Shown here: positions 2,785-56,146 of the stretch, piece by piece
How positions within the stretch are numbered: the stretch's first letter is position 1
Layout: each line of letters opens with the position of its first letter
Source of the DNA: a virus
Length of the DNA stretch: 56,829 bases
Direction: 5' to 3' (one strand)
IMG/VR virus record: IMGVR_UViG_3300036944_000909
The notes under the pieces: generated by a model
What the model was told of the DNA's origin: nothing
Database searches by the model: none
What the model saw: only the letters and a program-made list of their open reading frames with translations
Position numbers and translations under genes: made by a program

Positions 2785-2954
2785 CCGCCTCTAACGTCAT
2801 CGCATTCCCCCGCAAGCGCCGTCCCGTCTGCCCTCTCGATGAAGCCTTCGCACGCTTACGCCGCACAGAGCTGGCGATGGAGCAGGCAGCGGCTGAGATC
2901 GAGGCAGTCGCTAGGCGGCTTGAGCAAGCTAATCAGAGGGAACTGAAGTCATGA
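2781..2954 (+). CDS. Hypothetical small protein (57 aa, MTASNVIAFPRKRRPVCPLDEAF...), below the ORF-track size cut-off
   Basis: Translated by hand. ATGA overlap with the gene on each side and fills the gap exactly. Confidence 0.5.
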   Translation: MTASNVIAFPRKRRPVCPLDEAFARLRRTELAMEQAAAEIEAVARRLEQANQRELKS

Positions 2955-3715
2955 CTGCACTAGCAAAACACGACAACCGCAACGAGGTTGCCAACTCGAC
3001 GCCTGCCTACACCGCCGAAGTCCGCGTTGTGATGGAACTGCTCAACCGGGCAGACCTCCCGATGGACCGCGCCGAGGCCCTGCTTTCACGCCTCGACATG
3101 ATCCGCGAGCGCGACGAGGCCGCAGCCTACAACGAAGCCATGCGCCAGGTGAAGGCAAACCTGCCTGTCGTTGGTCGATCAACCGCGAACTCGCACACGA
3201 AGAAGAACTACGCCGACCTCGCTGACATTGCGGCGGTCTGCGATCCTGTCATCGCTGCGCACGGCTTCTCGACCGAATACTGGCCGTTCAACAGCGAGAA
3301 GCCGGACCATCTCGGCATCGGCTGCACCGTGTCTCACGCCAACGGCCACAAGCGCGAGTACCGCGCAGACGTGCCGCTGGATGGCGCGGGCGCGAAGGGC
3401 AACGCCAACAAGCCCGCAATCCACGCGTGGAAGTCCACCATGACCTACGGACGCCGTGCGCTCAAGGAAGCCATCTTCGACATCGCCACGACAGACGATG
3501 ACGGCAACGGCGCCATGTCGCAGCCCGTCGAGGTCGAGTTCATCAGCGACGAGCAACTGGATGAGCTTCGCGCCGAAATGAAGAAGACCGGCACGGAGGA
3601 AAGCAAGTTCGCCGCCTACCTGAAGGAGCCGACGCTGGGCGCCCTGACGGTGCAAAAATTCCATCAGGCAATGGCGGCGCTGAAGGCCAAGGCCGAAGCT
3701 ATGGGTGTCAAATGA
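2951..3715 (+). CDS. erf: ERF-family single-strand annealing recombinase
   Basis: NYADLADIAAVCDPVIAAHGF...VSHANGH...TYGRRALKEAIFDIATTDDDG matches the ERF core by eye. Followed by an exonuclease gene. Confidence 0.8.
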   Translation: MTALAKHDNRNEVANSTPAYTAEVRVVMELLNRADLPMDRAEALLSRLDMIRERDEAAAYNEAMRQVKANLPVVGRSTANSHTKKNYADLADIAAVCDPVIAAHGFSTEYWPFNSEKPDHLGIGCTVSHANGHKREYRADVPLDGAGAKGNANKPAIHAWKSTMTYGRRALKEAIFDIATTDDDGNGAMSQPVEVEFISDEQLDELRAEMKKTGTEESKFAAYLKEPTLGALTVQKFHQAMAALKAKAEAMGVK

Positions 3716-7248: not shown

Positions 7249-7634
7249 GCACGCTCGATCCCCTAACGGAAGCCCGTCTTCAGGAAGCCTTTACCACCCG
7301 CTGCGTGGTATCGGCTCGCGAAGTCGCGCGGATCGTTGGGATCGACTATGCTCGCGTCCTAGAAGACATCCGGGAAGGTCGCCTTCAGGGCATACCGTTC
7401 GGAAACCGCGTCGAGTTCACCGCCAGCCACGTCCGGCTATACCTGGGGAGGGCTCCGGAATGTCAGTCTACCAGCCAAGGGGCACAGACCGTTACGTCTA
7501 CGAGTTCCAGATCGCGCGGGTCAAATACCGGGGGCCGTGCAACACCACGAACCTCGCAGAAGCCAAGCGGGTGGAACGCAAGGCGCGAACTAACGCTGAA
7601 GCTGGCATCAAACCGGACGCAGTCAGCGAAATGA
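7245..7634 (+). CDS. Excisionase-like / MerR-type HTH protein
   Basis: GTGA overlap start. SAREVARIVGIDYARVLEDIREGRLQGIPFGNRVEFTASHVRLYL is an excisionase-family HTH. It sits immediately upstream of int. The frame runs 175 nt into int before its stop. Confidence 0.6.
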   Translation: MSTLDPLTEARLQEAFTTRCVVSAREVARIVGIDYARVLEDIREGRLQGIPFGNRVEFTASHVRLYLGRAPECQSTSQGAQTVTSTSSRSRGSNTGGRATPRTSQKPSGWNARRELTLKLASNRTQSAK

Positions 7635-8590
7635 CCGTTTCGACGGCCTGCGATCGATGGTTCGAGGAAGTCGGTCAGACACAGCCGTCAGCGAAGAACT
7701 GGCTGCGGTCGCTCAAGCTGGTCGAGCTGTGCGTAGGCGGCGACCTGCGGCTCAAGGAAATCACCACGGCAACCGTGTCCGAGGCTGTGCGCCGGCGCCG
7801 CCTGATGCTGGCCGAATACCGCTCCAAGGATGGGGTGAAAACCCGCGCCGTCAAAGCCTCGACGGTAAACCGGCAGGTTGTGGACGTCCTCAAACGCATC
7901 ATGCGCCGTGCCGAAATCGTCTGGGGCGCCAAGTCCCTGCAACGCATAGACTGGAGCGCCGTCCGGCTGACCGAAGCCTCGCCGCGGTCGCGCGAGATTG
8001 CGGATGAAGAACACGCGAGGTTGGACGCCTCGCTGCGTGCTGACTTTCGCCCGTTCCGAAACTTCCTCGCGACCTACGGAGTAAGGCTCGGGGAAATGTT
8101 CTTCGACCCGTCCGAGGTCTACGAAGTGCAGGGCCAGGTATCGATCCGCATCCGCGACCGTAAGGACGGCTCCACCTACGTTGTGGACCTGCTTCCCGAT
8201 GACGGCCGGCTGATGCTGGCGAGGAAGTCGCGCGCGATAGCCGCCAAGCTGCCTACGGTGTGGTTCAGGGAGGTTCGCGGCAAGCTGCGGCCCATGACCT
8301 ACAACAGCATTCGCCTCGCCCTGCGCCGCGCCATCAAGCGCGCTGGGCTGACGGATCTGACCATTCACGATCACCGGCACGACGTAGCAACGAAGCTGAC
8401 GCGCAAAGCCGGAATCGCGGTCGCTCAATCTCAGCTTGGACATGCCGATATCGGGACCACGCGCCGCTATGTGCAGGTCAGCACAAAAGATCGCCTCGCA
8501 GCGCTGTCCGCCATGAAATCCGGAGAAAAGTTCGGAGACGACGTTTCCGGCGCTGAAAATAGTGTCTCGAAACAACCGGGTGGCGTATGA
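7460..8590 (+). CDS. int: Tyrosine recombinase / phage integrase
   Basis: GGAGGG RBS. Arm-type N-terminus (YVYEFQIARVKYRG). Catalytic boxes GVRLGEMF, HDHRHDVATKL and LGHADIGTTRRY. Confidence 0.9.
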   Translation: MSVYQPRGTDRYVYEFQIARVKYRGPCNTTNLAEAKRVERKARTNAEAGIKPDAVSEMTVSTACDRWFEEVGQTQPSAKNWLRSLKLVELCVGGDLRLKEITTATVSEAVRRRRLMLAEYRSKDGVKTRAVKASTVNRQVVDVLKRIMRRAEIVWGAKSLQRIDWSAVRLTEASPRSREIADEEHARLDASLRADFRPFRNFLATYGVRLGEMFFDPSEVYEVQGQVSIRIRDRKDGSTYVVDLLPDDGRLMLARKSRAIAAKLPTVWFREVRGKLRPMTYNSIRLALRRAIKRAGLTDLTIHDHRHDVATKLTRKAGIAVAQSQLGHADIGTTRRYVQVSTKDRLAALSAMKSGEKFGDDVSGAENSVSKQPGGV

Positions 8591-8846: not shown

Positions 8847-9308
8847 ATGACGCGCTGGAAGCCGATGAAGCTGGCTCCGAAGAATGCCTACATCGACATC
8901 GTCGTGGGTGCTTACAGCTTCGATAGCCAGTCGGTTTCCACGGCGATTGAGCATGGCTGCTTCTGGGTGCGGGGGCCAATCCCGCTCCAGTACGGGCAGA
9001 TCGATGACAACGAGCACTTCCGGTCGGATGGAACGACTGAAGGCTATCTGTGGGATGTCTATGGCGGCTGGTATTCTAGAGACAGCCAGTCTCCCGTCGA
9101 GCGGATTCTCAATTATTCGGTTGAGCTGGCGCTTTACTGGAAGCCCAGCCTGGTAGCGCCTCGGGGCGCAACGGCGCTGATGAAGAAGCTTGCCGCTGCT
9201 TATAGTGCGCCAGAGGTTCGCGAGTTTCTGACCGCCGATGAAATGCGCGCTGCCGTGGAAAAGACCAATGCCCGACTGAAAGCTCGCTATGATCGAAGCA
9301 AGCGCTAA
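8847..9308 (+). CDS. Hypothetical protein (153 aa), accessory gene next to attP
   Basis: ATG after GAGAGGACGAGAG. Plausible composition. Confidence 0.6.
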   Translation: MTRWKPMKLAPKNAYIDIVVGAYSFDSQSVSTAIEHGCFWVRGPIPLQYGQIDDNEHFRSDGTTEGYLWDVYGGWYSRDSQSPVERILNYSVELALYWKPSLVAPRGATALMKKLAAAYSAPEVREFLTADEMRAAVEKTNARLKARYDRSKR

Positions 9309-9523
9309 CCCGGCTCCCTGACGTGGATCTTCACGGAGGTTTCAGGCAGCCACCTGCTACCGGCCAGAACCATGCACTGCCCGTTGCGGTAATCGTGCTG
9401 GAAGCCTGAGCCTTGCCACCTAGCGCGACAGTCGCTCTCCAGCCCTAGCAGCCACACACCAGACGCCACGAGCCCTGCCACGAACACGGATAGGACCGCG
9501 AGCGTGACAGGGCTGAGACGCAT
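9305..9523 (-). CDS. Small membrane-anchored protein (72 aa, N-terminal TM)
   Basis: MRLSPVTLAVLSVFVAGLVASGVWLLGL hydrophobic N-terminus. Lies 3 nt after the upstream gene. Confidence 0.55.
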   Translation of the reverse strand: MRLSPVTLAVLSVFVAGLVASGVWLLGLESDCRARWQGSGFQHDYRNGQCMVLAGSRWLPETSVKIHVREPG

Positions 9524-9526
9524 GGA

Positions 9527-9739
9527 CTAGGCCGTCTTGTTGTTCTTGCGGAAATAGCGCCAGCCGACGATGCCAGCCGCAGTCGCCGTGATGAACGGGA
9601 CGAGTTCAGCCAGGAACGGGATCGGCGGGCCACCGCCGAAGATCCAGCCGAGATAGACGACGACGATGACGCCGACGACATCCAGAAACGTATCGAAGTC
9701 AGGCACGGTCACTTGAGTAGCCACGGCTTTAGTCTCCAT
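9527..9739 (-). CDS. Small two-TM membrane protein (70 aa) with a basic C-terminus
   Basis: Two hydrophobic helices (VVGVIVVVYLGWIFGG and FITATAAGIVGW) followed by RYFRKNNK. No clear RBS. Confidence 0.55.
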   Translation of the reverse strand: METKAVATQVTVPDFDTFLDVVGVIVVVYLGWIFGGGPPIPFLAELVPFITATAAGIVGWRYFRKNNKTA

Positions 9740-9844
9740 TTCTAGGTTGATGTCCTCGTTCGGACGGCTAGAATCCGGAGAGCGGCGAAGGGAGCGTTGG
9801 AGCGCTCACCCTCGCCTGACCACAACGGCCTTTGGAGAGGCGTC

Positions 9845-10441
9845 ATGGATACTCAGCGGATATGTTCGGTTGATGGGTGTGACAAGCCAGCGTCCCACAA
9901 AGAATGGTGCAACGCTCACTACAAACGATGGAAGAGGAACGGCAATCCGCTAGGCCGAAACGCCTCGCCCGGAGAAGCATTGGAATTTCTCAGTGATGCA
10001 CTGGCAACCGCGAAGCCGGGCGATTGCATGATCTGGCCGTACTCCAAAAGCAACAAGGGACGGGGCAAGGTCTACATCAACGGCAAGACGATTGGCGCGC
10101 ACCGCGTCGCGTGTGAGCACATGCACGGCCCGCCACCCTCCCCAGAGCACGAGGCGGCGCACAACTGCGGCAAGGGCCATCTAGGCTGCTTCTCACCGTT
10201 TCATGTGCGCTGGGCCACTCCTGCCGAGAACCAGGCCGACAGGCTGATTCACGGCACAGCGTGTCAAGGCAACACCCACCCTAACTCCACGCTGACCGAG
10301 GATCAGGTTCGCGAAGTCCGCCGCCTGTATGCGACTGGCGAATACTCACAGCGCCGACTGGCTGAGATGTTCGGCGTTGCCCGCCGCACCATTGGAGCGA
10401 TGACAGACGGTCAGAACTGGAAGTGGCTGGACGTCGCCTAG
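9845..10441 (+). CDS. HNH endonuclease (HNH_3-type) with a C-terminal HTH
   Basis: CSVDGCDKPASHKEWCNAHYKRWKRNG, AHRVACEHMHGPPP..EAAHNCGKGHLGCFSPFHVRWATPAENQ and a C-terminal SQRRLAEMFGVARRTI. ATG at 9845 after GGAGAGG. Confidence 0.8.
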   Translation: MDTQRICSVDGCDKPASHKEWCNAHYKRWKRNGNPLGRNASPGEALEFLSDALATAKPGDCMIWPYSKSNKGRGKVYINGKTIGAHRVACEHMHGPPPSPEHEAAHNCGKGHLGCFSPFHVRWATPAENQADRLIHGTACQGNTHPNSTLTEDQVREVRRLYATGEYSQRRLAEMFGVARRTIGAMTDGQNWKWLDVA

Positions 10442-10713
10442 ACCTTGCAAATGGACGCGTCGAAGCTCGCCGGGCGCTTCTCAGGGCAGGCGCACCAGAG
10501 CGAATTATTGTGGTCGCCAACCTGCTCGGCTGTTTCGACGGTCAGGACATCGCCGCGCGAGATCAGGATTGCCTTGCCGGTTGAGCAAAGCGCCTCTTTC
10601 CAGATGGCCCCTTCAGTCGCGGTAATGATGCTTTTCGAGGGTCGAGCTTCCGTCTGGCAGGACGCCAGCAGCGGTATGGCTGCGCACAGCGTCAGCCTCA
10701 GCAATGACTGCAT
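10438..10713 (-). CDS. Outer-membrane lipoprotein, o-spanin candidate (Rz1-like position)
   Basis: MQSLLRLTLCAAIPLLASC contains a lipobox (LLASC). The gene overlaps the 3' part of the i-spanin candidate in another frame. The track starts at 10746. Confidence 0.6.
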   Translation of the reverse strand: MQSLLRLTLCAAIPLLASCQTEARPSKSIITATEGAIWKEALCSTGKAILISRGDVLTVETAEQVGDHNNSLWCACPEKRPASFDASICKV

Positions 10714-10921
10714 CGGTATTCTCCTGAATGTTGGTGACAACTTCACGCTCGACTTCGGCGGCTTCCTTGTCGCGCTTGGCGCCCTCTTCCTTGCGCCCGC
10801 GATGCTCTGCCCGCATGTCCACGAACTTCAGGAAGATGATGGCCGCGAGAGCCCAGAGCACCCAATCCGGGATGCGCTTGAGAAAGCCCCAGATGCCCGT
10901 CCCGATCGCTGCGATGTTCAT
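10613..10921 (-). CDS. i-spanin candidate (Rz-like): N-terminal TM plus a charged helical periplasmic domain
   Basis: MNIAAIGTGIWGFLKRIPDWVLWALAAIIFLKFV followed by RAEHRGRKEEGAKRDKEAAEVEREV. ATGA-type overlap with the lysozyme stop. Overlapped by the lipoprotein ORF. Confidence 0.6.
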   Translation of the reverse strand: MNIAAIGTGIWGFLKRIPDWVLWALAAIIFLKFVDMRAEHRGRKEEGAKRDKEAAEVEREVVTNIQENTDAVIAEADAVRSHTAAGVLPDGSSTLEKHHYRD

Positions 10922-12183
10922 TTCAGCGGCTTCTTCGCTTTGTGCTGCCCATACTTGTAGAGCGCGAACCCGATTGCCACGACGATCAGCCATGTGATCA
11001 GCTCGCGGTTGCCCTCGTTCGTGACCCACGTTTGCGCGGCTTGAGGGAGCAGGTTCGTTGTGCCAAGCGCCGTGACCGTCAGGCCCCAGAAGCGCTTGGA
11101 CATCACCATGTCTTTCGGCTCAATGCTCGCAGGCGCCGCATCCTTCGGGAGCGACGGCGCGGGAATTACCGCAGGCACAGAAGCAGGCGCCGGTCGAGCC
11201 GTAGGTACTGGCTGGGGAGCTGGGACCGTTGGCTTGACCGACACCGCTTCCGAGGAACCACTCGCGGAAGTCTTGATTGCAGGTCCAGCCTGTACTGGGC
11301 CGGGCAGCGGCACAGGCTGGCCCGCCGTTCCTGCCGCTGGCACAGCGACGGGATCAGCTTTGATGGGGGTGGTGAGGACAAGCTCTGCGGGCGGGAGAGG
11401 CTTGGCGCGCATCCGAACATGCGCCAGCGTCGTGAGCCCTTCCGTGCTGATGGAATCGCGCCAGACGCCCGTGGACAAAAGCTTGGCCTTGGTCGGCAAA
11501 GCAACGTCGTTGTCTTTCGTCACGTCGCGGGGGTCATAATCGAGGAAGACGAGCCCGCCCCAGAGACGGCGTCTCAGCAGGCCCCTGTGCGCGTCCTGGT
11601 AGGGATACCACTTCTCCTCTGAGCCAAGCTCAATGCGCTCAGCGCCAGTCAGGTGATCGGGCGGGATTGCCCACCATTGCCCGCCGCTCTTTTCCACGTC
11701 CCAGCCCTTCGGCGGAAGCTTGACCGGGCCGCGCTTTGAACCAGAGCCGTAGACGAACTCCGTCATTGCGACAGCGGCATCCTGCCACTTCTGCGCATTG
11801 ATCGCAGGCAACAGCCGCGAAGATCCGCTCAGCGTTGTCTCACGGGTGTTGAACCGGAAACTGCACAGCACATCGAACTGGTTCTGCGTCAGCGGGACCG
11901 TGACGTACCTGCGGACATACTCCTCGCAATACTTGGCGTTGAAGCCCAGCAGCTTTCGCCGGCGCTCAGGCAGGTGTTCGTCATCGGGCAGCGTGTCGCC
12001 TTGCTGGACCGGACGCCCATCCTCCCAGAAGCAGCAGCCATCACCGATGGTCCACTGATTGCTGGGGCAGAGATAGGCTTCCAGAGCGCAGCCGTCCGCT
12101 GTCTGGCGACAGTCCGCAGGCGCGTTCTCGAACTCGTCTATCTCGCGATAGAACCATTCGCCTACGGTCAGATGGTCGTTCAT
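10918..12183 (-). CDS. GH24-type phage lysozyme fused to a Pro/Ala-rich linker and a C-terminal two-TM, holin-like tail
   Basis: ALEAYLCPSNQWTIGDG, LTQNQFDVLCSFRFN and HRGLLRRRLWGGLVFL match lysozyme blocks. Residues 280-350 are P/A/V-rich. The last 63 aa (MVMSKRFWGLTVTALG...LITWLIVVAIGFALYKYGQHKAKKPLK) are hydrophobic with a basic end. Confidence 0.8.
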   Translation of the reverse strand: MNDHLTVGEWFYREIDEFENAPADCRQTADGCALEAYLCPSNQWTIGDGCCFWEDGRPVQQGDTLPDDEHLPERRRKLLGFNAKYCEEYVRRYVTVPLTQNQFDVLCSFRFNTRETTLSGSSRLLPAINAQKWQDAAVAMTEFVYGSGSKRGPVKLPPKGWDVEKSGGQWWAIPPDHLTGAERIELGSEEKWYPYQDAHRGLLRRRLWGGLVFLDYDPRDVTKDNDVALPTKAKLLSTGVWRDSISTEGLTTLAHVRMRAKPLPPAELVLTTPIKADPVAVPAAGTAGQPVPLPGPVQAGPAIKTSASGSSEAVSVKPTVPAPQPVPTARPAPASVPAVIPAPSLPKDAAPASIEPKDMVMSKRFWGLTVTALGTTNLLPQAAQTWVTNEGNRELITWLIVVAIGFALYKYGQHKAKKPLK

Positions 12184-13715
12184 GCCGCCCTGCCAAATGA
12201 TACACCAGCCACGTCAAGGATAGGCTCGCCTGACGGGCCGATTTCCACGTCAAGCTGCACGTCTTCCGGAGCCTCGGCATCGATCGCGATCTGATGCTCC
12301 CATACAAGGATGTTCTCGCCCGGCTCCTTGGAATCGCCCTGCAAGAGCTTCAGCGTCATCACGGCCTGGCCTGCATCGCCACGCGGCCTAAGCCACCACG
12401 TTGCCTTCGTGCCGTAGGCCGTCCCCTTGCGAACGATCTCGGTTGCCACGTCTTCCGGCTTGTCGTGCGTCTCGATTGAGAAGCCGTGCGATGTGATGTT
12501 CTCGATGGTGATGCTTGCCAGCCTGCCTTCGCGGATGCCTGCCTTCACGGCGGCCCCAAGCACGACGGCCAATTCGGGGTCAACGCCTGAGGCCGGCGCC
12601 TTCCCAAAGAAGTGCGCAACCTTCCTCTGGATCGATTTCACGCGCGTCTGCCCGCCCACCAGAATTACGCAGTCGATATCATGCACCGAAAAGCGGGGGT
12701 CTTTCTCCTTGGCTTCGGCCATTGTGCGCGTCATCGCGTCTTCAATGTCGCGCAGCAGTTCCTTGGTCGCCTCGTCCATGTGGTCGCGGCTGATGCGCTG
12801 GATGACGTGAACATCCTCGTTGGTCTTCTTGTCGATGTCGATGTCCTCGACGCGGAACTCGGTGAGGTCGTCTTCCGACAGTCGGCGCTTGGCCGCTTCG
12901 GCTTCGATCAACAACATGCGCTGCGCGTCAGGCTGCGTGGCAAGTGCGGAGTTCTCGTGCTCAAACTCATGCAGCGTCATGACCAGGCTGCGGAGACGCA
13001 GATCCCAATCGTCGCCGCCAACAAGCGCCGCACCGTTGGTCCCCAGCACGCGGAACAGACCGCCGCCGATCTCGAACGCTGCACAGTCAGTCGTACCAGC
13101 CCCAACGTCCACCACGAAGATGCGGCTGACCTTCTCGGCTTCTTCCTTAAAGCCATGCGCAATGGCCGCGGCAACCGGCTCGTGCAGCAATTCGACTTCT
13201 TCGAATCCCGCCATCTCTGCCGCTTTGCGCAGTGCGTTGCTCTGGGCGATATTGTAGGCGGAAGGTACGCAGATGATGGCGTTCTTGACCGACTTGCCCA
13301 GCTTTTCTTCAGCCGCTTCCCGAAGATGGATCAGCACATAACTGACCAGTTCCTCGGGCGGATAAGTGAACCCGTCATAGCCTTGGTAGGCGAGCATTCC
13401 GGTGCGCTTGCCTTCCGCATCGACGCCCTCGCACATCTGCTCCGGATAGGCTTCCTCCGGGTTGTAGACGGCCCCTAGCTGGCGCTTGAAGCTGGTGAAG
13501 CAGTAGGGCGAACGCGGCGAACGTTCACGCGCACGCAAGGCGCGCTGCCCCACAACCACTTCCCACGGATTTTCGGGGTTGTCGGTGTGAACCAGCATGA
13601 CGGCAGACGGAACCAGTTCCGATCCGTCGATCTTCAGGACTTCGGGGCCAAGAGGTCCATAGATGGCAACTGCTGAGTTGCATGTACCGAGGTCAATCGC
13701 GATCCAGTCAATCAT
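12180..13715 (-). CDS. Hsp70 (DnaK/HscC-like) family ATPase: intact nucleotide-binding domain plus a beta substrate-binding domain, no helical lid
   Basis: IAIDLGTCNSAVAI (phosphate-1), IFVVDVGAGTTDCAAFEI (phosphate-2) and VILVGGQTRVKSIQ (adenosine motif). The C-terminal ~110 aa are beta-rich. ATGA overlaps at both ends (13712-13715 and 12180-12183). Confidence 0.85.
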   Translation of the reverse strand: MIDWIAIDLGTCNSAVAIYGPLGPEVLKIDGSELVPSAVMLVHTDNPENPWEVVVGQRALRARERSPRSPYCFTSFKRQLGAVYNPEEAYPEQMCEGVDAEGKRTGMLAYQGYDGFTYPPEELVSYVLIHLREAAEEKLGKSVKNAIICVPSAYNIAQSNALRKAAEMAGFEEVELLHEPVAAAIAHGFKEEAEKVSRIFVVDVGAGTTDCAAFEIGGGLFRVLGTNGAALVGGDDWDLRLRSLVMTLHEFEHENSALATQPDAQRMLLIEAEAAKRRLSEDDLTEFRVEDIDIDKKTNEDVHVIQRISRDHMDEATKELLRDIEDAMTRTMAEAKEKDPRFSVHDIDCVILVGGQTRVKSIQRKVAHFFGKAPASGVDPELAVVLGAAVKAGIREGRLASITIENITSHGFSIETHDKPEDVATEIVRKGTAYGTKATWWLRPRGDAGQAVMTLKLLQGDSKEPGENILVWEHQIAIDAEAPEDVQLDVEIGPSGEPILDVAGVSFGRAA

Positions 13716-15097
13716 TGTGCGGCAACCTTCATGGCTTGGGCATTGCTGCGGTCAGCGAGGATAAGCACGCGGTTACGCGCCGCTTTGGTTGCGGCCTTCA
13801 TGAATGACGAGTTCTTGCCGCCCTTCCGTGGCCCTTGCTTGACGGGCGCGGGATCGACCAGAACGATCGGGTCAGGCGTCGGCTGGGGTATCTCGGATGG
13901 CGCGGTATCTTGCGCCGGGATGTCCGCTGTCTGAAGCAGGGTGACGGTCGGCGCATCCGTGACGGCGCGGTTCTGCGCATTCTCCGCTCTCTGGAGGATG
14001 CCAGAGATGATCGCGTTGGCTTCAGCGCGCTTGAGGTTGCGCTCTGCCGCGCGCATCGCGTCGTAGATGTCCGGATCATCGCCCGCCTTGATCGCCTCCA
14101 GGCGAACACGGGCCTCCTCTGCCCGCAGCCTGATCTCGGCTAGTTCCTGTTCTGCCATTGCCTGCTGTCGGGACAGCTCTGCCTCGACTTGCGCCTTGTG
14201 GACGATGGCTTCGATCTCGACACGCTTGATGGCTGCATCCAGACGGCCAACCAGCCCCTCGATCGCGCCAAGGCCAAAGAACGCCATAGCTTCGATCCAC
14301 AGCGCGAACAGGAACAGGATCGTCAGGCCCCAGATAAGGGCGTCACCCCAGATAGAGCCAAGCACCGAGAAGATGGCGTCGGCGGGCGAAACTTCGGTCT
14401 TGACCTCCGCTGTCTCCGTCTGGATCGTTTCCCGCTGCTGCTCGATCTCGGCAATCTGCGTTTCCAGCGAGTTGATTTCTCCGCTGGCGTCCGTGCGGTA
14501 CTTCTGGATCTCCTGACGCAGCAGGGCGATGTTCTGGTTGTCTGCGGGGCTGATTCCCGGAACGCCGTCCTGCGCGATGAGCTGGATCGACATATTCGCT
14601 TCAGAGATCGAGTCGTCGCGGTTCTTTTCGATGCGGGCAATCTGCGTTTGCAGCGTTTCGATGCGCGCGGCCTTGTTGGTGTCGGAGACTGCCGTTGTCG
14701 CTTCGGCAATGGTCGCGCCCTGCGTCTGGACCTTGTGACCGCCAGCAAAGAACGAAAGCGCCGGCACAAGGCAGAGAAGCCCCGCCACGACGGAAAGCGT
14801 GCGGATCGTGCGCGCCTCTTTCTTCAGGTCGGCCATGCCCCTGATGCGCTGCATGACCGGACCAGCGAACACGCCGCAGGAACGAATGGTCAGCGCGATC
14901 AGGAGGAAGACCGGCACGAGATACCAGGTCGGCGCCCACGCAATGAAGAAGATTGCGTCGAGAACATAGACGGCGATGATCGAGCCGACAGAGGCTCCGA
15001 TCAGGCCGCTCTTGGACCAGCGCAGGATACGCGTGGCGGCAAGCCGCTCCTTGTGGTCAGGGTGATTGCCCTGCCACTCCCATCCGAGGATTTTCAT
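13712..15097 (-). CDS. Polytopic membrane protein with two long coiled-coil segments (461 aa)
   Basis: ATG at 15097 after GAGAGGG (the track starts at 15184). Three N-terminal TM helices, a ~150-aa heptad-like segment (IETLQTQIARIEKN...LETQIAEIEQQRETIQTE), a TM hairpin (ALIWGLTILFLFALWIEAMAFFGLGAI), a second coiled coil, and a Pro-rich basic tail. Confidence 0.75.
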   Translation of the reverse strand: MKILGWEWQGNHPDHKERLAATRILRWSKSGLIGASVGSIIAVYVLDAIFFIAWAPTWYLVPVFLLIALTIRSCGVFAGPVMQRIRGMADLKKEARTIRTLSVVAGLLCLVPALSFFAGGHKVQTQGATIAEATTAVSDTNKAARIETLQTQIARIEKNRDDSISEANMSIQLIAQDGVPGISPADNQNIALLRQEIQKYRTDASGEINSLETQIAEIEQQRETIQTETAEVKTEVSPADAIFSVLGSIWGDALIWGLTILFLFALWIEAMAFFGLGAIEGLVGRLDAAIKRVEIEAIVHKAQVEAELSRQQAMAEQELAEIRLRAEEARVRLEAIKAGDDPDIYDAMRAAERNLKRAEANAIISGILQRAENAQNRAVTDAPTVTLLQTADIPAQDTAPSEIPQPTPDPIVLVDPAPVKQGPRKGGKNSSFMKAATKAARNRVLILADRSNAQAMKVAAQ

Positions 15098-15119
15098 ATG
15101 CCCAGCCCTCTCGTTCGCG

Positions 15120-15548
15120 CTACATGCGCGCGGTGGTTTCCCAGAAGACAAACAGCGCCCCGAAAATGGAAAGCACCGCTCCAAGGATCAGAAACAGCAC
15201 CTGTTGGCGCGTCTTCTTTGCTTCGTTCGCCGCCATCTCCCGATCGCGTGCGAGCATCAATTCCACTTGCGCCAGAAGCGCATTGGACTGGTTCTCATTG
15301 GCCGTGGCGAAGTGCTCACGAACACCTGATAGTGCATCACGCATAGCCGTCTCCCACTCGCGTCGAATCTCCTTGATGTCTTCATCACTCACAGCATCGC
15401 CAAGCTTTTCGCGAATGCTGTCCAGCGCGCCTTCAAAGCGTGACTTCAGGACTGAAACGGCCTCTTGCAACGCTGCGATTTTTTCCCAATCGGATCGCTC
15501 AGACGAGCGTTTTTGCAGCTCAAGCTGCTCCTTCAGCAGAAGTTCCAT
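15120..15548 (-). CDS. Tail-anchored coiled-coil protein (142 aa, single C-terminal TM)
   Basis: Charged helical sequence ending in VLFLILGAVLSIFGALFVFW. Confidence 0.7.
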   Translation of the reverse strand: MELLLKEQLELQKRSSERSDWEKIAALQEAVSVLKSRFEGALDSIREKLGDAVSDEDIKEIRREWETAMRDALSGVREHFATANENQSNALLAQVELMLARDREMAANEAKKTRQQVLFLILGAVLSIFGALFVFWETTARM

Positions 15549-15569
15549 TTTGCCCAGCCCCTTTCGAAA

Positions 15570-16172
15570 TCATCGCTTTGCTCCCACCTGCGCAAACATG
15601 CCCTGCACACGGCTGACGAGGTTCTCGCGCCCGAAGTTCTCATCGACCGTGCCGCGCAGCCTCCGCAGACGCGCCTTCTCGGTGATGAGCTTCTCGGTCC
15701 ATTCGTTCACCCGCTCAGGCGGGACTGTGCAGAGCGCCAGTTCAAGCGACTGATCGGAAAGCACGGTTGCCATGTCCAGAAGCTCATCGACGCCCAGCGT
15801 CATGCGCTCGACGGCCTGCTCCAGCGTTTCATCGCCCGTCATGAGCTGGCCGAAGTCGTCAGGGATACCAGGATACGGCCCCACCTCTCCCCAATCCGAC
15901 ATGAGCGCATCAGGGGCGGGAAGAAGCGGGGCTTCGGCTGCGGCGCGAAGCTGTTCGTTCTCTCTGCTGAGTTCGGCAATGCGCGACAGCAGCGCGTCTG
16001 CGTCCGCATTGGTGACGCCGCTACCGTGCATGACAGGCGTAAGCGATGGTTTGCGCCGCGAATGCTCCAGAACTTCAGCGGAGTTTTCTGTCGTTCGGCG
16101 GATATCGACCCGCACTCCCATTTCAGTAAACGCAACGAACAGCGCCCTGTGATGGGCGGCGGCTTCCGACAT
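15570..16172 (-). CDS. Hypothetical soluble coiled-coil protein (200 aa)
   Basis: ATG at 16172 after GGAGA (the track starts at 16238 and would overlap the upstream gene). Confidence 0.65.
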   Translation of the reverse strand: MSEAAAHHRALFVAFTEMGVRVDIRRTTENSAEVLEHSRRKPSLTPVMHGSGVTNADADALLSRIAELSRENEQLRAAAEAPLLPAPDALMSDWGEVGPYPGIPDDFGQLMTGDETLEQAVERMTLGVDELLDMATVLSDQSLELALCTVPPERVNEWTEKLITEKARLRRLRGTVDENFGRENLVSRVQGMFAQVGAKR

Positions 16173-16189
16173 GACAATGTCTCCGGGTA

Positions 16190-16975
16190 TCAGCGCTTGC
16201 GAAGCGCAACGATTGTTTCGTTCACCACGAACAGGCAAGCTTCGACCGTAAAGCCGAACTCAGGCGCAAGGCGCGCGATGTGCTCTTGCAGCGTCTCCAT
16301 AGTCCACGCGTGGACGTGAACGTCAAAGCCAGCGGCCATGATACGCCGCGCCTCCGCCTCGTGCTGATCATCAGGAATCGGTTCAGCCAGGTGGGGATGA
16401 ACGTCTCGGATGTGCTCAAGATAGGCGGCAAGTTTAGTGCCAGCGCCGCCGTCTTTCATGTCTGCCAGAAGGTGGTCGAACATGGTCGGCGCCCGCCACT
16501 TGTCGAAGGTGTGCCGCATGTCTGGAACGGCCATCAGCAGGATGCCGCCAGGCTTTAGACGCGCCAGCGCCTCACGGATGGAACCGAAGGGGTCGAACAG
16601 ATGCTCGATGACGTGCGCGTGAACGATGAAGTCGAGCGAAGCCGGCGCCACCACGTCGAACGTCTGCGCGTCCACGAACTCGCAAGGTCCGACACAGTTT
16701 CCGAAATATGCCTCAAGCCCTGCCGCGTCACGCACGTCACCATACAGGCAGGAGGCTGAGGCGGGTAACGGCCAGGGGCGAGATCCAGCACCAACCTCGA
16801 CGCCTCGTCCACGGATCAAGACTGACGCAACACCGCGGCGGGCACTGAAGATTTCAGCATCAAGGCGCTCACGCAGCATGTCGCTGCTCTCGCGCTGCAT
16901 GGCGACCAGCGTGCCGATCATGTGATCGACCGACTGGCGCCGCCAGAACTCATGCGTTTCTTCCGGCCGGAACAT
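16190..16975 (-). CDS. Class I SAM-dependent methyltransferase
   Basis: VEVGAGSRPWPL (motif I-like, GxGxG type), ARLKPGGILLMAVPD (post-II/III) and a Rossmann-type alternation. Confidence 0.7.
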   Translation of the reverse strand: MFRPEETHEFWRRQSVDHMIGTLVAMQRESSDMLRERLDAEIFSARRGVASVLIRGRGVEVGAGSRPWPLPASASCLYGDVRDAAGLEAYFGNCVGPCEFVDAQTFDVVAPASLDFIVHAHVIEHLFDPFGSIREALARLKPGGILLMAVPDMRHTFDKWRAPTMFDHLLADMKDGGAGTKLAAYLEHIRDVHPHLAEPIPDDQHEAEARRIMAAGFDVHVHAWTMETLQEHIARLAPEFGFTVEACLFVVNETIVALRKR

Positions 16976-17001: not shown

Positions 17002-20000
17002 TTAGGCCGCTTCGTAGTGTCCGTCGACGATGAAGCTAACACCGGTTCCGGTGGGATATGTGCCTGTCGCCGTAACAACCTGCACTTGCGATGTTCCCGT
17101 CATCCCCGCCGTAACAGCGACAAGACCGCTTGTGCGACCCGGCATAATCTGGGTGGTCGCAGCCTTCGGTGCAATTGGCAGCGGAATCAAAATCGAGCCA
17201 GCGCCTGTCCCGTTGTTCGTGTTGGTAAATTCAATATGCGTCTCGATCAGCTTCCCGATGCGCTTGATCCAGACGGCGGCTGACACGTCAGTGAGAGACC
17301 CCGATCCGGACGCAACAGCAGAGCCCGTCGCCTGCGTATAGGTAGCCGCCAGCGCCCGCGCTTGACGCACATAGCTCGATAGGAGCGAGCGCGTGGCCGG
17401 CACGGGGCCGTCCGTGTCCCAATAGATCGCGCCTGTTACCTCGGTTGGGTCCGACCCAATGGTGAAGTCGCTATCCTTCACGGTCCCATTCGCGTTGTTG
17501 AAGGCCGCAGACACTCCTGTCAGGGCGAACGTACGAACGTTATCGAAGACGAAGCTGGCGACTGCCGTCATCGAAATGCCGCCAGTGGCGTTGGTGGTGT
17601 TGTCGCCAGCAAGCGTCACGTTGCAGAACGACAGGCGCTCGTTCGAGCCACCGCTTACAAGCGCTGCCCACGAGGACGGTGCGCCCGCCAGCCAGGTATT
17701 CAGAACGTTTGCGGCATAGACCGACTTGCCGCCACCTGCGCCGGCAAACTTGAGGCCGATGCCGTTTGTCCCGTACTGACCGTCGAGAATTGAATCGGTC
17801 ACTGAGAGTTGCAGCGCGTCATCAACAAGGAAGGCGATGCAATCGGCCACTGTCGGCAGGATTTCCAGCCGCGAGAACACAGCCCCTTCACTATGGGGCG
17901 AGGCGTCAGTTGTGACTGTGGCGTTGGTGTCCGGCGTTCCGATGTCTGTCAGGTTCCCGCCGCCGTCGATCGGCGACAGGGTCAGCGTTGTTGCAGTGCG
18001 GGCCGTGACCCGACAGACGCGCCCGTTGTTCGTCGTGAATGCGCCGAGCGTTACCACCGCGTCTACGAGAATGCCGTCAGAGATGAAGCTCTGAGCGCCG
18101 CCAGCCTGTCGCGTCAGAACGTTAGATGCAATGGTAAAGCCGTCCCCGACACTGGCGGTAACTGTGATCGTGCTTGCTGTGTCAATGTGGACACCGAACT
18201 TGCCCCCACGGCTGACAATATCCTCGCCATGAAAGCCAACACCGCCATCGCGGATGTGCAGCAGTTTCCAATAGTTGAGAATGAGCGCGCTCTGAAGACG
18301 CCCCGAGTCAGCGCCGTTCACCTGGAGAAAGATCTGAGATCCACCGACCTGTCCGGAACCCTGAACGTTGCGGACGATCTGACGATAGTTGTTGTATTCC
18401 TCTTTCGTAAACCGGAACGCGATGCCCGCAAGCCCCGACTCGTCCTTGATGAAGCCGCCATCCCAGATGATCTCCGAGCCGGTGATGTCAAACCACACTG
18501 CACACGCGGCAAGTGGCGTGATCGTGGCTCCGTCCGCGAAGATGGTATAGCCGCCGTAGTCCAGGCCAGATTTCGGCTCAAGCGTTCCAGCGCCAATCAG
18601 GTAAGGACCGCCCGGATCGATGATGCACCGCGTACCCTCGCCCGCTTCTGCAATCATCGCCCAGAAGGCCGCGCTGTCCGCGCCGGCGCCGTAGCTCGTA
18701 TAGAAGTCGAGGATGTGCAGTTCGTTCTGTCCGATGCGGACGCCCATGTTGCGGGCAAAGCGGAACTTGCGCTTGTCCGTCATGGTCAGCGTGAACGGCT
18801 TCGTTCCATCCCACTGGTTATCAGTGACGATGAAAGGCCCGCCGCTGGCCCCATCGAGCAGGATGAAGTTTGTCGTGCCAGCGAACAGAACCGTATTGCC
18901 GCTGATTGTCGTGGAGCCGGCGTTCTCGACATCGACAGAGCAGTTGGAAATGTTGGAAAAGCGGTTGTCGCTTATGATCAGCGATGCCGTGTTATCCTTC
19001 GCGGCGACACCAAAGGCCGCGTTCTGGATGTCATTGTTGCTGATGTCGATGTTGACGCAATTGCCGGGCGCCGTCTCGTTCAGGTAGATGCCAACGCCGT
19101 TCGTCGCGTCGGCGCGATACGGAGAAATCCAGTTGTTCGAGATCAGGACGCCGTCGATGTTCTGCGTACCCGGCGACAGCACAATGCCATAGGCCTGGCA
19201 CTGATCGATCGTGTTGTTGATTACGCGCAGCTCGAGCGTTTCGCGAACATCGAGGAACGCGTCCCCCGTCAGGATAGACGAGTTGCCTTCGATGCGGATG
19301 CCTTCAGGACGCGCCGCGCCTCCGCTGGCGTGAACAAAAATGCCCTGCCCCGTCCCGCCAAACACGTTGTCCTCGATGACGGTCTCGATGTTGATGTCTG
19401 CGGATGTCCGATCCACCTCCACGCAATACGCAGCCCCGGCGCGGGCAACGTAGAACTCATTGTCCTTGATGCTGGCATACGAGCCGCGCGTGTAGAGAAG
19501 CGGGTCGGTTGCGGCGACATTGGTTCCCGCTAGACGGCAGAACGAGATGTCGTGAAACTCGCCGTCCTCAAGGTCGATGCACTTCCCTGCCGTTCCGGTA
19601 TGCTCGATATTCAGATTGCGGATGTTGACGTGAAAGGCTGACGTAACGCTGATCGCATCACCAGTGCCGGAATAGGTAATGGTGCGCTGCCTTTGGTCGC
19701 CCCTGACTTCGCCTTCCAGCGTCACGTAATCGCCGCTGATGACGATCGGCGTTGTTCCGGTGCAGGTGACGTCCACGATGACGTGCTTCGCGCCCGTCGC
19801 AAGGGCGGCATTGACCGCAGCGGCTCCGGTAACAACGTCGGTCTCATACCATGAGGCGCGCGTAGGGCCTGTGTAGGCGTTGCCCAGAAGTGTCGGCCAC
19901 GTTGACCCAAGCTCAGCGGCGAGGACCGGCGCCCAGCCCGACCCGAGCCCCACCTCGATGGCGTCTATGTCGGCAATCTCAAGATGCACAACCGAACCGT

Positions 20001-20496
20001 CTGTCGCTCGGCCAAGCAGCTTCGTCACACTTGTAGGGGCGATTGGAAGAGATTGTTCTGCGGTTTCGCGCCAATCCACCTTGAGCGATCGGTCGATATC
20101 TCGCCGCGCTTCCTGAAGCTCCTCGGTCAGAACCGACATCGCAGCCGACAGGGCCTCTGCCGAGAAGTTGCCACCCGATGACAGCGAGATCACATCGGCC
20201 AGAGACTGAAGTCGCGTGACAACCAGGCGCTCCGTCGATGCGAGAACAGCCTGCGCCGAGGTCAGCGTGATGGTCACGGCATCCACGTCCGTCAGGTTCG
20301 CGGTGAAGTCCGTGTTTACCGCAAGAGCAGTACCAGTCTCGTCAGTTACCGAGGCGTAGCGGCGAACGACCAAGTGCGCAGTGCTGCGAATGCGGATCGG
20401 ATTTCCCGAGCTATCATTCAAAGTAAAAGGCCCGCGCGTACCAGATCCAATAAAGACCACGCGAGGATTGTGGGTCGCCATCACGTCATAGGGCAC
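17002..20496 (-). CDS. Tailspike / tail fibre with a right-handed parallel beta-helix (pectate-lyase-like, probable polysaccharide depolymerase)
   Basis: 1164 aa. GTG start after GGAGCAA. Repeated beta-helix rungs (IRNLNIEHTG, IKDNEFYV, IEDNVFGG, ISNNWISP, ISNNDIQN, ISDNRFSN). Position after the ejection proteins. Confidence 0.8.
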   Translation of the reverse strand: MPYDVMATHNPRVVFIGSGTRGPFTLNDSSGNPIRIRSTAHLVVRRYASVTDETGTALAVNTDFTANLTDVDAVTITLTSAQAVLASTERLVVTRLQSLADVISLSSGGNFSAEALSAAMSVLTEELQEARRDIDRSLKVDWRETAEQSLPIAPTSVTKLLGRATDGSVVHLEIADIDAIEVGLGSGWAPVLAAELGSTWPTLLGNAYTGPTRASWYETDVVTGAAAVNAALATGAKHVIVDVTCTGTTPIVISGDYVTLEGEVRGDQRQRTITYSGTGDAISVTSAFHVNIRNLNIEHTGTAGKCIDLEDGEFHDISFCRLAGTNVAATDPLLYTRGSYASIKDNEFYVARAGAAYCVEVDRTSADINIETVIEDNVFGGTGQGIFVHASGGAARPEGIRIEGNSSILTGDAFLDVRETLELRVINNTIDQCQAYGIVLSPGTQNIDGVLISNNWISPYRADATNGVGIYLNETAPGNCVNIDISNNDIQNAAFGVAAKDNTASLIISDNRFSNISNCSVDVENAGSTTISGNTVLFAGTTNFILLDGASGGPFIVTDNQWDGTKPFTLTMTDKRKFRFARNMGVRIGQNELHILDFYTSYGAGADSAAFWAMIAEAGEGTRCIIDPGGPYLIGAGTLEPKSGLDYGGYTIFADGATITPLAACAVWFDITGSEIIWDGGFIKDESGLAGIAFRFTKEEYNNYRQIVRNVQGSGQVGGSQIFLQVNGADSGRLQSALILNYWKLLHIRDGGVGFHGEDIVSRGGKFGVHIDTASTITVTASVGDGFTIASNVLTRQAGGAQSFISDGILVDAVVTLGAFTTNNGRVCRVTARTATTLTLSPIDGGGNLTDIGTPDTNATVTTDASPHSEGAVFSRLEILPTVADCIAFLVDDALQLSVTDSILDGQYGTNGIGLKFAGAGGGKSVYAANVLNTWLAGAPSSWAALVSGGSNERLSFCNVTLAGDNTTNATGGISMTAVASFVFDNVRTFALTGVSAAFNNANGTVKDSDFTIGSDPTEVTGAIYWDTDGPVPATRSLLSSYVRQARALAATYTQATGSAVASGSGSLTDVSAAVWIKRIGKLIETHIEFTNTNNGTGAGSILIPLPIAPKAATTQIMPGRTSGLVAVTAGMTGTSQVQVVTATGTYPTGTGVSFIVDGHYEAA

Positions 20497-20578: not shown

Positions 20579-21150
20579 CTACTTAGCGCCGGTCACTGAG
20601 CGCCATGTTCGTCCGCTTTGAATGTAAAAGACGGCGGACGAGCTACAGCCGTATTCTAGGGCTATTTCGCTATCAGAACGCTTGTCGATGTAGATTTTTC
20701 GGACGTCGTCAGGTGTTAGCCTTGTGCCGGGGTGTGTTTCGCCCGTGATAAGTGTTCCGTGCTCGCGCGCGTCTTCTACGTTCTGCCTTCTCGTCGCGAA
20801 GCGCAGATGGTTAGGATTTACGCACCACCTGTTGCCACATCGATGCGCGGCATCCGCTTTCGGGAACGACGGAGGCCCGTGCTCCATTTCGCACATTGCT
20901 CTGTGCGCGCCCATTCGCTTGCCTCGCCACGTCACGGCGCCGTATCCGGGCCTCCAATTCCGTAGGGCCAACGAACGCAAGCCTCCCCCTTAAATCCACG
21001 GAGAGCTTCAAGAAACTTTACACCTGCGCCAGCCTCACACTGCGCCTTTGCATCAAGCGAACCAGTAAGTCGTTTGCGCGAGTAATGCTTGCCGCAAAGA
21101 TCCTTTGCCAGAACCTCGCGCTCACAGTCGTTTGCGCTGCACTTTGCCAT
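20579..21150 (-). pseudogene. HNH endonuclease split by a frameshift (ORFs 20932-21150 and 20579-20980). Paralogue of 9845-10441.
   Basis: The first ORF (MAKCSANDCEREVLAKDLCGKHYSRKR...CVRWPYG) parallels the N-terminus of the 9845 gene. The second ORF (GYGAVTWRGKRMGAHRAMCEMEHGPP...AAHRCGNRWCVNPNHLRFATRRQN) parallels its HNH core. The frames differ by one nucleotide around 20940-20960. Confidence 0.7.
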
Positions 21151-56062: not shown

Positions 56063-56146
56063 TCCGTAAAGGCTGCGATGTCTTGGCGAGGGCTCCGGGT
56101 GCAATCCGGGGCCTTCGTTCGTTTCAGGTCACGTTCGGAGAAGGGT

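Follow-up and report, generated by a model that had tools for sequence, protein, structure and literature searches.

A lidless Hsp70 with membrane-anchored partners in the lysis operon of uncultured podophages: a candidate chaperone device for endolysin anchors

The late operon of an uncultured temperate podophage, represented by the 56,829 bp contig IMGVR_UViG_3300036944_000909 (the whole of which is called the window here), is the source of a four-gene module that is undescribed in the literature searched. The module comprises a coiled-coil protein of 200 amino acids (cc), a tail-anchored coiled-coil protein of 142 amino acids, a polytopic membrane protein of 461 amino acids and a lidless Hsp70 of 511 amino acids, and it is followed by a C-terminally anchored lysozyme, the endolysin, and the spanins. 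With a probability of roughly 0.4, these genes encode a dedicated Hsp70 machine docked at the membrane, which handles the two-helix anchor of the endolysin and so controls lysis. An earlier sequence-only reading of the same DNA had offered three explanations, namely a chaperone device for the membrane-tailed lysozyme, an abortive-infection or exclusion moron and a tailspike maturation system, of which the first is the best supported, its role being one that we infer. The fixed position of the module, its chain of ATGA overlaps, the envelope-facing body of its membrane protein and its exclusive association with an unusual endolysin argue for a late, lysis-linked function.

The order cc – tail-anchored coiled coil – polytopic membrane protein – lidless Hsp70 – C-terminally anchored lysozyme – spanins was found in 34 of 34 contigs, as far as each contig extends. 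These contigs, from IMG/VR, Logan, ENA, JGI and NCBI assemblies, were recovered with the Hsp70, the 142-amino-acid protein, the membrane protein, the full-length lysozyme and the i-spanin as seeds, and they cover at least five Hsp70 clades with at most 42% mutual identity. Contigs L001-L003, which are 99% identical, come from marine metagenome samples. Independent occurrence of the parts, which the earlier reading had named as evidence against a coherent system, was not seen with any of the five seeds, as no contig thus recovered held one part of the module minus the others, and the scan seeded with the i-spanin returned module-bearing contigs only. The ATGA overlaps reported earlier between the membrane protein and Hsp70 genes (13712-13715) and between the Hsp70 and lysozyme genes (12180-12183) were confirmed by direct reading, and a third joins the lysozyme and i-spanin genes at 10918-10921. 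Across the two dozen loci in which both genes could be mapped, the membrane protein gene ends 4 nucleotides past the Hsp70 start or within about 11 nucleotides before it; apart from three loci, the Hsp70 gene overlaps or directly adjoins that of the lysozyme. Three loci carry an inserted HNH gene between these two genes.

All five minus-strand open reading frames of which the unit had been thought to consist lie where they had been placed, and the JGI gene calls give identical products of 200 and 461 amino acids. The notion of a coherent unnamed unit within the late/lysis operon thus stands with its order kept in the 34 contigs, but for four genes and not five. The remaining gene (16190-16975, minus strand) was correctly recognised as a class I S-adenosylmethionine (SAM) methyltransferase (Pfam Methyltransf_23, 32.5 bits with a cut-off of 27; Methyltransf_11, 24.5 bits with a cut-off of 21.2), but it falls outside the conserved module because a tblastn search of 52 related locus records gave no match. 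The gene, inserted between the tailspike and cc, is peculiar to the source phage, and its closest phage homologues show at most 23% identity. In profile and fold searches no part other than the Hsp70 fell within a known system, in agreement with the earlier reading, which had recognised none: the 200-, 142- and 461-amino-acid proteins have no meaningful match in Pfam, PHROG, NCBIfam or PADLOC, and the PADLOC-DB defence models gave nothing significant with the module proteins, the best being PD-Lambda-1 (14 bits, E-value 0.0034) and PDC-M61B (20 bits, over a stretch of 40 residues).

The Hsp70 (12180-13715, minus strand) consists of a nucleotide-binding domain (approximately 12540-13715) and a beta substrate domain (approximately 12183-12539). 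It matches PF00012 with an E-value of 6e-76 (256 bits, cut-off 20.6) over profile positions 2-454 of 599, and phmmer aligns its residues 5-491 to residues 5-475 of E. coli DnaK. The motifs DLGTCNS, DVGAGTTD and LVGGQTR are present as described before, the beta substrate domain is kept and the helical lid is absent. In an alignment of 14 family members from five clades with two DnaKs, the elements D-x-G-T/S, KR, EP-x-AAA, D-x-G-G/A-G-T-x-D and VGG-x-T/S-R/H are kept, and all 14 proteins stop about 20 residues past the equivalent of DnaK residue 475, that is without the lid; lengths in the family range from 495 to 513 amino acids. The NCBIfam equivalog thresholds are not reached (246 bits against DnaK cut-offs of 648 and 822; 196-198 bits against HscA cut-offs of 620 and 709), and the family forms 19 clusters at 46-96% identity, after which identity drops sharply to 32% for cellular DnaK. 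The phage protein thus appears to be a divergent lidless member of a known superfamily. Other Hsp70-like matches in phage records are DnaK-like genes of about 30% identity, mostly in unannotated records, bacterial contigs and jumbo phages. A profile search of 1.84 billion representative proteins returned 54 short Hsp70s (470-540 amino acids) among the best 150 matches, and as about 20 of these 54 are nearer to the phage family than to DnaK, the family is sizeable. The other approximately 34 short Hsp70s among the best 150 (within P0227-P0375) are no nearer to the phage family than to DnaK, and further lidless Hsp70 populations may occur in metagenomes.

The endolysin (10918-12183, minus strand) has 421 amino acids, with a T4-type lysozyme domain at residues 29-149 (PF00959, E-value 2e-18, 67 bits, cut-off 22.3; with matches to PHROG endolysin families as well), a linker of about 120 residues rich in Pro and Ala, and C-terminal helices encoded at approximately 10954-11100. 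T4-type lysozymes possess the catalytic triad Glu-x8-Asp/Cys-x5-Thr; in the endolysin E19, C39 and T45 are invariant in 8 homologues (alignment A4), and the C-x5-T spacing fits the family triad, with the Glu 19 residues upstream instead of 8. Hydropathy analysis gave no hydrophobic segment elsewhere in the protein, including an N-terminal signal or signal-anchor-release (SAR) sequence. All 25 lysozymes adjacent to the module share the Pro/Ala linker, two C-terminal helices of moderate hydrophobicity and the basic end, and the only two other relatives of the lysozyme domain found in the viral collection (34-35% identity) are plain proteins of 151-158 amino acids, both from unrelated low-GC phages that are devoid of the module. 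Endolysins with two C-terminal transmembrane helices have been described for Enc34, M4Lys and the chiviruses, where their route to the cell wall is unexplained (PMC7143992, PMC8943055); M4Lys alone lyses E. coli, for which its transmembrane domain is required (PMC7143992, PMC8943055), and DnaK and DnaJ assist tail-anchored proteins in the same bacterium (PMC6794478). By analogy, a self-lysing anchored endolysin would be hazardous to co-express with virion genes, and hydrophobic C-terminal segments like that of the endolysin would be the kind of sequence that Hsp70s bind.

The membrane protein, read earlier as polytopic with two long coiled coils, is indeed predicted to possess N-terminal transmembrane helices and two long helical hairpins in an AlphaFold2 (AF2) model built with 40 homologues (mean predicted local distance difference test score (pLDDT) 66, predicted TM-score (pTM) 0.35). 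Along the minus strand, three N-terminal transmembrane helices (residues approximately 33-120, 14738-15001; by hydropathy, with AF2 helices at 13-54, 60-85 and 89-119) are followed by an antiparallel helical hairpin (residues 132-231, 14405-14704; pLDDT 85-93), which is predicted to be periplasmic from the positive-inside rule. A fourth transmembrane helix (residues 253-280) then runs into a putatively cytoplasmic hairpin that extends to residue 380 (13958-14341; by hydropathy, with AF2 helices at 253-338 and 346-380), and a disordered Pro-rich linker (residues 383-422, 13832-13951; pLDDT below 50; alignments A3 and A6) leads to the conserved C-terminal tail RKGGKNSSFMKAATKAARNRVLILADRSNAQAMKVAAQ (13715-13831), the proposed docking or client motif for the Hsp70. 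In the tip loop of the first hairpin, DGVPGIS-ADN, the residues D177, V179-S183, D186 and N187 are invariant in 40 homologues (alignment A8). Foldseek with the model of the protein gave nothing below an E-value of 0.4.

The body is of type A in the source phage, its position is taken by an unrelated-looking type B body in most relatives (whose loci are numbered with the prefix L), and the disordered linker is the recombination junction between body and tail (alignments A3 and A6). Precomputed matches to DUF4407 (PF14362) exist for 17 of the 43 listed homologues of the type A body; the orthologue in L007 reaches an E-value of 0.0018 (18 bits, cut-off 31.3), the source protein has no match at an E-value of 0.01 or below, and a literature search found no characterisation of DUF4407. 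The type B body shows recurrent sub-threshold matches to half of a PG_binding_1 domain at the place equivalent to the hairpin (E-values 0.0045-0.26, in 5 of 6 proteins). Weak matches of a coiled-coil type link the membrane protein to the Rz-like spanin family phrog_739 (E-value 0.005) and to HlyD adaptors (E-value 8e-7, far below the cut-off).

The tail is the sole part conserved across both body types. Among 60 distinct tails from 73 proteins, 58 are built alike, beginning with a Gly/basic segment (R-x-G-G-K) that is followed by an amphipathic basic stretch, a four-residue core and acidic or small residues; the core is aliphatic or aromatic (LLIL, LLVI, YILV, VILV, YIPV or WIPV) and many tails end in KVAAE. 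A strict test demanding at least 4 of 5 hydrophobic core residues and at least 3 Lys/Arg in the 14 residues upstream was passed by 40 of the 60, 18 more with a weaker or Pro-containing core were assigned by eye, and 2 were unfit. The core of the source tail lies within NRVLILADR and is placed by AF2 in a coil between two helices, behind the disordered linker. DnaK binds stretches of 4-5 hydrophobic residues flanked by basic residues, with NRLLLTG as the model peptide. The pattern of the tail appears to match this client rule, and together with the flexible linker it suggests that the tail docks the substrate domain of the Hsp70 at the membrane.

The 142-amino-acid protein (15120-15548, minus strand) is tail-anchored, as had been proposed, with one C-terminal transmembrane segment at residues 117-135 (15144-15200; mean Kyte-Doolittle hydropathy 2.8 in a 19-residue window) and about 7 residues after it; its gene immediately precedes that of the membrane protein in all loci (alignment A1), and it has no family match. 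The cc protein has a variable N-terminal half with a short coiled coil (residues 1-95, 15888-16172, minus strand; low AF2 confidence) and a conserved C-terminal helical domain (residues 96-200, 15570-15887; alignments A2 and A7), modelled as six helices with a pLDDT of about 90. For this C-domain no match was found in Pfam, PHROG, PDB or Foldseek searches, and comparison with viral models (BFVD) gave nothing below an E-value of 0.25. A GrpE- or BAG-like role of cc was considered but is unsupported, as the PDB profile search and Foldseek gave noise only (GrpE at an E-value of 6; plant BAG domains at 1.8-2.9).

Neither a J-domain HPD motif nor a GrpE-like partner had been noticed in the sequence-only reading. 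The latter observation holds, with no GrpE found in profile searches of the module proteins. As to the former, the membrane protein does contain the tripeptide HPD, at residues 12-14 (15056-15064), but this is not part of a J domain. It is found in 2 of 31 membrane proteins (those of the source and L041) and in none of the cc and tail-anchored proteins, and as HPD is absent from most homologues, the idea that the membrane protein is a J-domain protein was discarded. The tripeptide is common only to close type A relatives (e.g. L041 and P0124), and its surroundings lack a J-domain context. Host DnaJ or GrpE may be used by the phage Hsp70.

Comparison of pairwise identities over about 25 loci indicates which parts of the locus travel with the Hsp70. 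The Spearman correlation with Hsp70 identity is 0.91 for the last 45 residues of the membrane protein, 0.81 for the lysozyme catalytic domain and 0.78 for the cc C-domain (Pearson 0.95), the latter tracking the Hsp70 despite swappable DNA between them. The corresponding values are 0.40 for the tail-anchored protein, 0.13 for the N-terminal half of cc, 0.08 for the membrane body and -0.02 for the lysozyme anchor; the last two parts show no co-variation with each other either (Spearman approximately 0). In L028 (type B) and L040 (type A) the bodies are 22% identical, the tails 82% and the Hsp70s 89%; between the source and L041 the bodies are 73% identical, the Hsp70s 34% and the tails 27%. The membrane protein is therefore a chimera of an exchangeable body and a tail that tracks the Hsp70.

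The type B body is 72-96% identical across clades whose Hsp70s are about 37% identical, with a synonymous divergence (dS) of 0.5-1.4 and a ratio of non-synonymous to synonymous divergence (dN/dS) of about 0.1, at a saturated dS of the Hsp70; these values point to recent exchange of the body under purifying selection. In being exchanged between clades and under purifying selection, the membrane body evolves like the envelope-facing parts of the lysis machinery, as the lysozyme anchor and the spanins have likewise been exchanged, with up to 100% identity across clades. Anchors and spanins of up to 100% identity are seen where the catalytic domains are only about 35% identical (within L001-L032, e.g. 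L003 versus L021). Identical anchors on divergent catalytic domains indicate recombination inside the endolysin gene, at the Pro/Ala linker. Recombination thus cuts repeatedly inside three genes at domain boundaries, with the tail staying with its Hsp70.

In the mechanism that is proposed for the docked Hsp70, the basic helix and the four-residue aliphatic core of the tail would bind the substrate groove and keep the ATPase on the cytoplasmic side of the inner membrane, where the cytoplasmic coiled coils of the membrane protein, the coiled coils of the tail-anchored protein and the conserved C-domain of cc would provide a platform. At this platform the Hsp70 would capture the two weakly hydrophobic helices of the endolysin, which would be translated from the shared mRNA immediately after the Hsp70, and perhaps also the anchor of the 142-amino-acid protein. 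By retaining these anchors or passing them to the membrane, it would determine the time and place at which an otherwise self-acting endolysin makes contact with the envelope, and the periplasmic hairpin would place the device against the cell wall. That the module amounts to an ATP-driven chaperone gate, a new lysis component which holds, releases or inserts the C-terminal two-helix anchor, is a more specific and a more doubtful proposal.

Several observations weigh against an Hsp70 machine for the endolysin anchor. The chivirus endolysins with a two-helix anchor work without a phage Hsp70 (PMC7143992), and the holin candidates of the late operon (see below) make the canonical holin-endolysin route available. 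The proposed client, the endolysin anchor, swaps independently of the Hsp70 (Spearman -0.02), which is no signal of co-evolution, and as the tail and the lysozyme N-domain adjoin the Hsp70 gene, their co-variation with it is explicable by linkage or vertical descent. The HNH insertions between Hsp70 and lysozyme in three loci indicate that translational coupling is dispensable. The topology of the membrane protein, including the periplasmic location of its hairpin, is a prediction; a Pfam search found no peptidoglycan-binding domain in the membrane protein of the source itself, the type B matches being sub-threshold; and the cc, tail-anchored and membrane proteins gave no Pfam match to DnaJ or GrpE, with GrpE appearing in the PDB profile search at an E-value of 6 only.

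The rival that survives best, although on balance unlikely, is an assembly platform for the tail fibre or tailspike, in which cc serves as an adaptor that brings the spike to the membrane-docked Hsp70 for folding or trimerisation and the proximity to the lysis genes merely reflects operon order; with the same low likelihood, the variable N-domain of cc would recognise the fibre or spike encoded upstream and its C-domain would deliver it to the Hsp70. The gene for cc always comes immediately after the last virion gene or the fibre/spike region, and the N-terminal half of its product varies together with the C-terminal portion of the protein encoded upstream, across deep divergence of the other parts of the module. 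L001 and L022 have upstream genes of 95% identity and cc N-halves of 91% with Hsp70s of about 36%, L008 and L028 upstream genes of 81% and cc N-halves of 61% with Hsp70s of about 31%, the L016 group behaves alike, and L004 and L007, which share the middle of the spike only, have unrelated cc N-halves. The tracking of the Hsp70 by the cc C-domain over intervening swappable genes also accords with an adaptor, and Hsp70 homologues of closteroviruses work in virion tail assembly (PMC12978162). On the other hand, L018, L019 and L032 share cc N-halves of 99-100% identity with different or unrelated upstream proteins, and L024 and L026 share the cc N-half, yet just the first 121 residues of the fibre. 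The tailspike maturation system suggested earlier is therefore a live rival for which the cc N-half travels with the fibre gene in three of six groups and fails to do so in the other three. Moreover, the methyltransferase intervenes between spike and cc in the source genome, no similarity to tail-fibre chaperone families emerged from PHROG and fold searches, and the polytopic membrane protein with its invariant hairpin tip and the ATGA chain are left unexplained.

Quite unlikely is a lysis-timing or envelope device that does without the endolysin anchor, in which the membrane protein itself is holin-, antiholin- or spanin-like and the Hsp70, by pulling on the flexible tails, remodels its oligomer in the manner of Hsc70 on clathrin and ties lysis to ATP. 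Synteny and translational coupling speak for it as much as for the endolysin anchor as client, horizontal exchange affects the membrane body as it does the spanins and the lysozyme anchor, the architecture of disordered linker and tail fits, and the hairpin arms of about 45 residues would, as modelled, be long enough to reach the wall. The weak matches to phrog_739 and HlyD adaptors point in the same direction, but they are typical of coiled-coil composition; an ATP-driven chaperone in holin control is without precedent, and cc and the tail-anchored protein are left without a role. Judged from the sequence, a complete two-component spanin is already present, consisting of an i-spanin of 102 amino acids (10613-10921, minus strand; N-terminal transmembrane segment at approximately residues 17-37), which follows the lysozyme in the relatives, and an o-spanin lipoprotein (10438-10746, minus strand; lipobox LLASC; Rz-like spanin phrog_1275, E-value 5e-8), the gene of which overlaps that of the i-spanin.

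Separate holin candidates are also present. One protein of 70 amino acids (9527-9739, minus strand) is a candidate for the holin in view of its position and its architecture, which comprises two hydrophobic segments and a basic C-terminus; it has no PHROG, Pfam or NCBIfam match, and its place is taken in relatives by one of three unrelated small proteins with two transmembrane segments. The last gene of the late operon (9305-9523, minus strand) encodes 72 amino acids, in which one N-terminal transmembrane segment precedes a small domain with two Cys residues and the terminal sequence HVREPG; it has homologues in 33 locus records, closes the late operon in most relatives, lacks a family match and is a candidate antiholin-like protein or lysis regulator. 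In relatives, the equivalents of these two genes directly follow the spanins. The module had been said to sit where the holin should be, but the holin-like small genes lie downstream of the spanins, and with such candidates present the module is not a holin replacement.

That the phage simply brings its own Hsp70 as a general proteostasis helper for late proteins such as those of 3191 and 1164 amino acids, with unrelated late genes as neighbours, is improbable. DnaK-like genes do occur in jumbo and huge phages, and the ATPase and substrate domains of the protein look functional. The three partner genes, though, are never apart from the Hsp70 in the 34 contigs, and the relation between tail and Hsp70, like the absence of the lid from all clades, speaks for a dedicated function at the membrane; the single Caudoviricetes sequence in a survey of viral HSP70s (PMC12978162) also indicates that this is not a routine auxiliary gene. 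Least probable is the earlier suggestion of a prophage-carried moron for defence, abortive infection or superinfection exclusion, which is in keeping with the temperate nature of the phage (an integrase is present, as in L040), the position of the block between tail genes and the attachment/integrase end, a frequent moron site, the exchangeable types of the membrane body and the weak PADLOC match to PD-Lambda-1 (E-value 0.0034, 14 bits), but which is poorly supported since every member of the lineage carries the block in fixed order, it is ATGA-chained to endolysin and spanin in the late operon without a promoter or terminator of its own, the PADLOC matches are at noise level, the membrane body is under purifying and not diversifying selection, and a search of 185,579 species-representative genomes with two module probes yielded no copy.

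With respect to the source genome, its assignment to a temperate podophage is based on a podophage late operon, with terminase, portal, tail tubular protein, capsid, the internal protein of 3191 amino acids and the spike of 1164 amino acids, together with an integrase (7460-8590, plus strand; L040 also possesses one), an ERF recombinase (2951-3715, plus strand) and a C5 cytosine DNA methylase (54992-56104, minus strand). No cultured relative was found by megablast, the portal is about 25% identical to those of HTVC010P-type pelagiphages, and the two module-specific probes detected no copy in the 185,579 species-representative genomes. An N4-like identity, prompted by the open reading frame of 3191 codons, was rejected, as cultured phages gave no match and the PHROGs indicated a T7-like/HTVC010P-like podophage layout. 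The product of this reading frame (21160-30735, minus strand), of which the C-terminal third matches phrog_9880, is probably an ejected internal virion protein; its counterparts in relatives have 1500-3375 amino acids with LPD22 and ART-PolyVal 'polyvalent protein' domains, and its C-terminus is weakly conserved (14-42% identity). A scan for close relatives without the module, seeded with this C-terminus, gave none, the aligned alternative being too divergent for use. The first approximately 190 residues of the tailspike (1164 amino acids, 17002-20496, minus strand) are common to relatives, with 40-50% identity in L040, L028, L007 and L021, and the remainder is unique and without a PHROG match, a layout that looks like the typical anchor domain with a swapped receptor-binding part. 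Promoter- or terminator-like signals are not in excess between 8500 and 21500, the module block included. Related homing-endonuclease-like HNH genes (HNH_3, some with HTH_7) occupy differing junctions of the late operon across phages, several on the opposite strand; they are found at 9797-10441 (plus strand) and 20579-20980 (minus strand) in the source genome, the former separating the spanins from the holin-like genes, and in relatives at 3678-4238 in L017, 10198-10743 in L026, 2948-3559 in L048 and 13783-14391 in L007.

Among known systems, the phage Hsp70 shares with DnaK/Hsp70 (PF00012) the actin-like ATPase domain with all nucleotide motifs and a complete beta substrate domain, and the module resembles HscC with its membrane tail-anchored J-proteins DjlB and DjlC in combining a dedicated Hsp70 with membrane-anchored partners, a theme into which it would fit by analogy. 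In contrast to DnaK and HscC, the phage Hsp70 has neither lid nor C-terminal tail and is about 32% identical to cellular DnaK, its partners lack a J domain or conserved HPD, no GrpE is encoded and the genes are located in a lysis operon. In Tim44/Pam18-mtHsp70, Sec63-BiP and Get3-Get1/Get2, an ATPase chaperone is held at the membrane by a coiled-coil receptor with a flexible basic tether. The module may be compared with these systems, to which it does not belong, in its membrane-held ATPase chaperone and in clients with C-terminal hydrophobic anchors, but Foldseek detected no sequence or fold relation to Tim44/Sec63/GET-type systems; as opposed to the membrane-tethered Hsp70 motors there is no J-protein, and the phage Hsp70, which would act in cis from the cytoplasm, cannot pull protein outwards. 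In mycobacteriophage Ms6, the chaperone gene gp1 is located immediately upstream of, and coupled to, the endolysin gene lysA, and control of access to the wall has been proposed for Gp1. A phage chaperone gene coupled upstream of an endolysin is thus common to both, but Gp1 is a small type-III-secretion-like chaperone without membrane partners from a phage of a Gram-positive-like host and shows no homology.

The endolysins of the Enc34/M4Lys type are alike in their N-terminal catalytic domain, linker, two C-terminal helices, absence of an N-terminal signal or SAR sequence and location next to the spanins (PMC8943055; PMC7143992). However, their catalytic domain is PHA02564 and not PF00959, which makes common descent with Enc34 unlikely, the linker of the endolysin described here (about 120 amino acids) is much longer, and those phages are without the Hsp70 module, with M4Lys lysing E. 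coli unaided. The Hsp70 homologue (Hsp70h) of closteroviruses and the HSP70s of giant viruses are likewise virus-encoded with a dedicated, non-housekeeping role, but the viruses concerned infect eukaryotes, and Hsp70h functions in the virion tail and in movement (PMC12978162). DUF4407, a family of bacterial membrane proteins, is matched by some homologues of the type A body, and the tail matching the Hsp70 is confined to the phage proteins. A 2026 survey of viral HSP70s reported a single Caudoviricetes sequence, for which its authors suggested a possible misannotation (PMC12978162), and full-text searches of the literature yielded no account of an Hsp70 within a phage lysis cassette.

Dozens of genuine phage Hsp70s, all in one fixed genetic context, come from this lineage, and the universal loss of the lid constitutes a natural experiment on what a lidless Hsp70 is capable of, while the chimerism of body and tail in the membrane protein provides ready-made specificity swaps. 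For a class of endolysins with an unexplained route to the wall (PMC8943055), the module is a concrete candidate mechanism. Should the fibre be assembled at the membrane, this would be likewise new for tailed phages. If, instead, the Hsp70 acts as a chaperone gate for the endolysin anchor, it would explain how C-terminally anchored endolysins stay harmless and are then deployed, and it would be the first demonstrated function of a genuine phage-encoded Hsp70.

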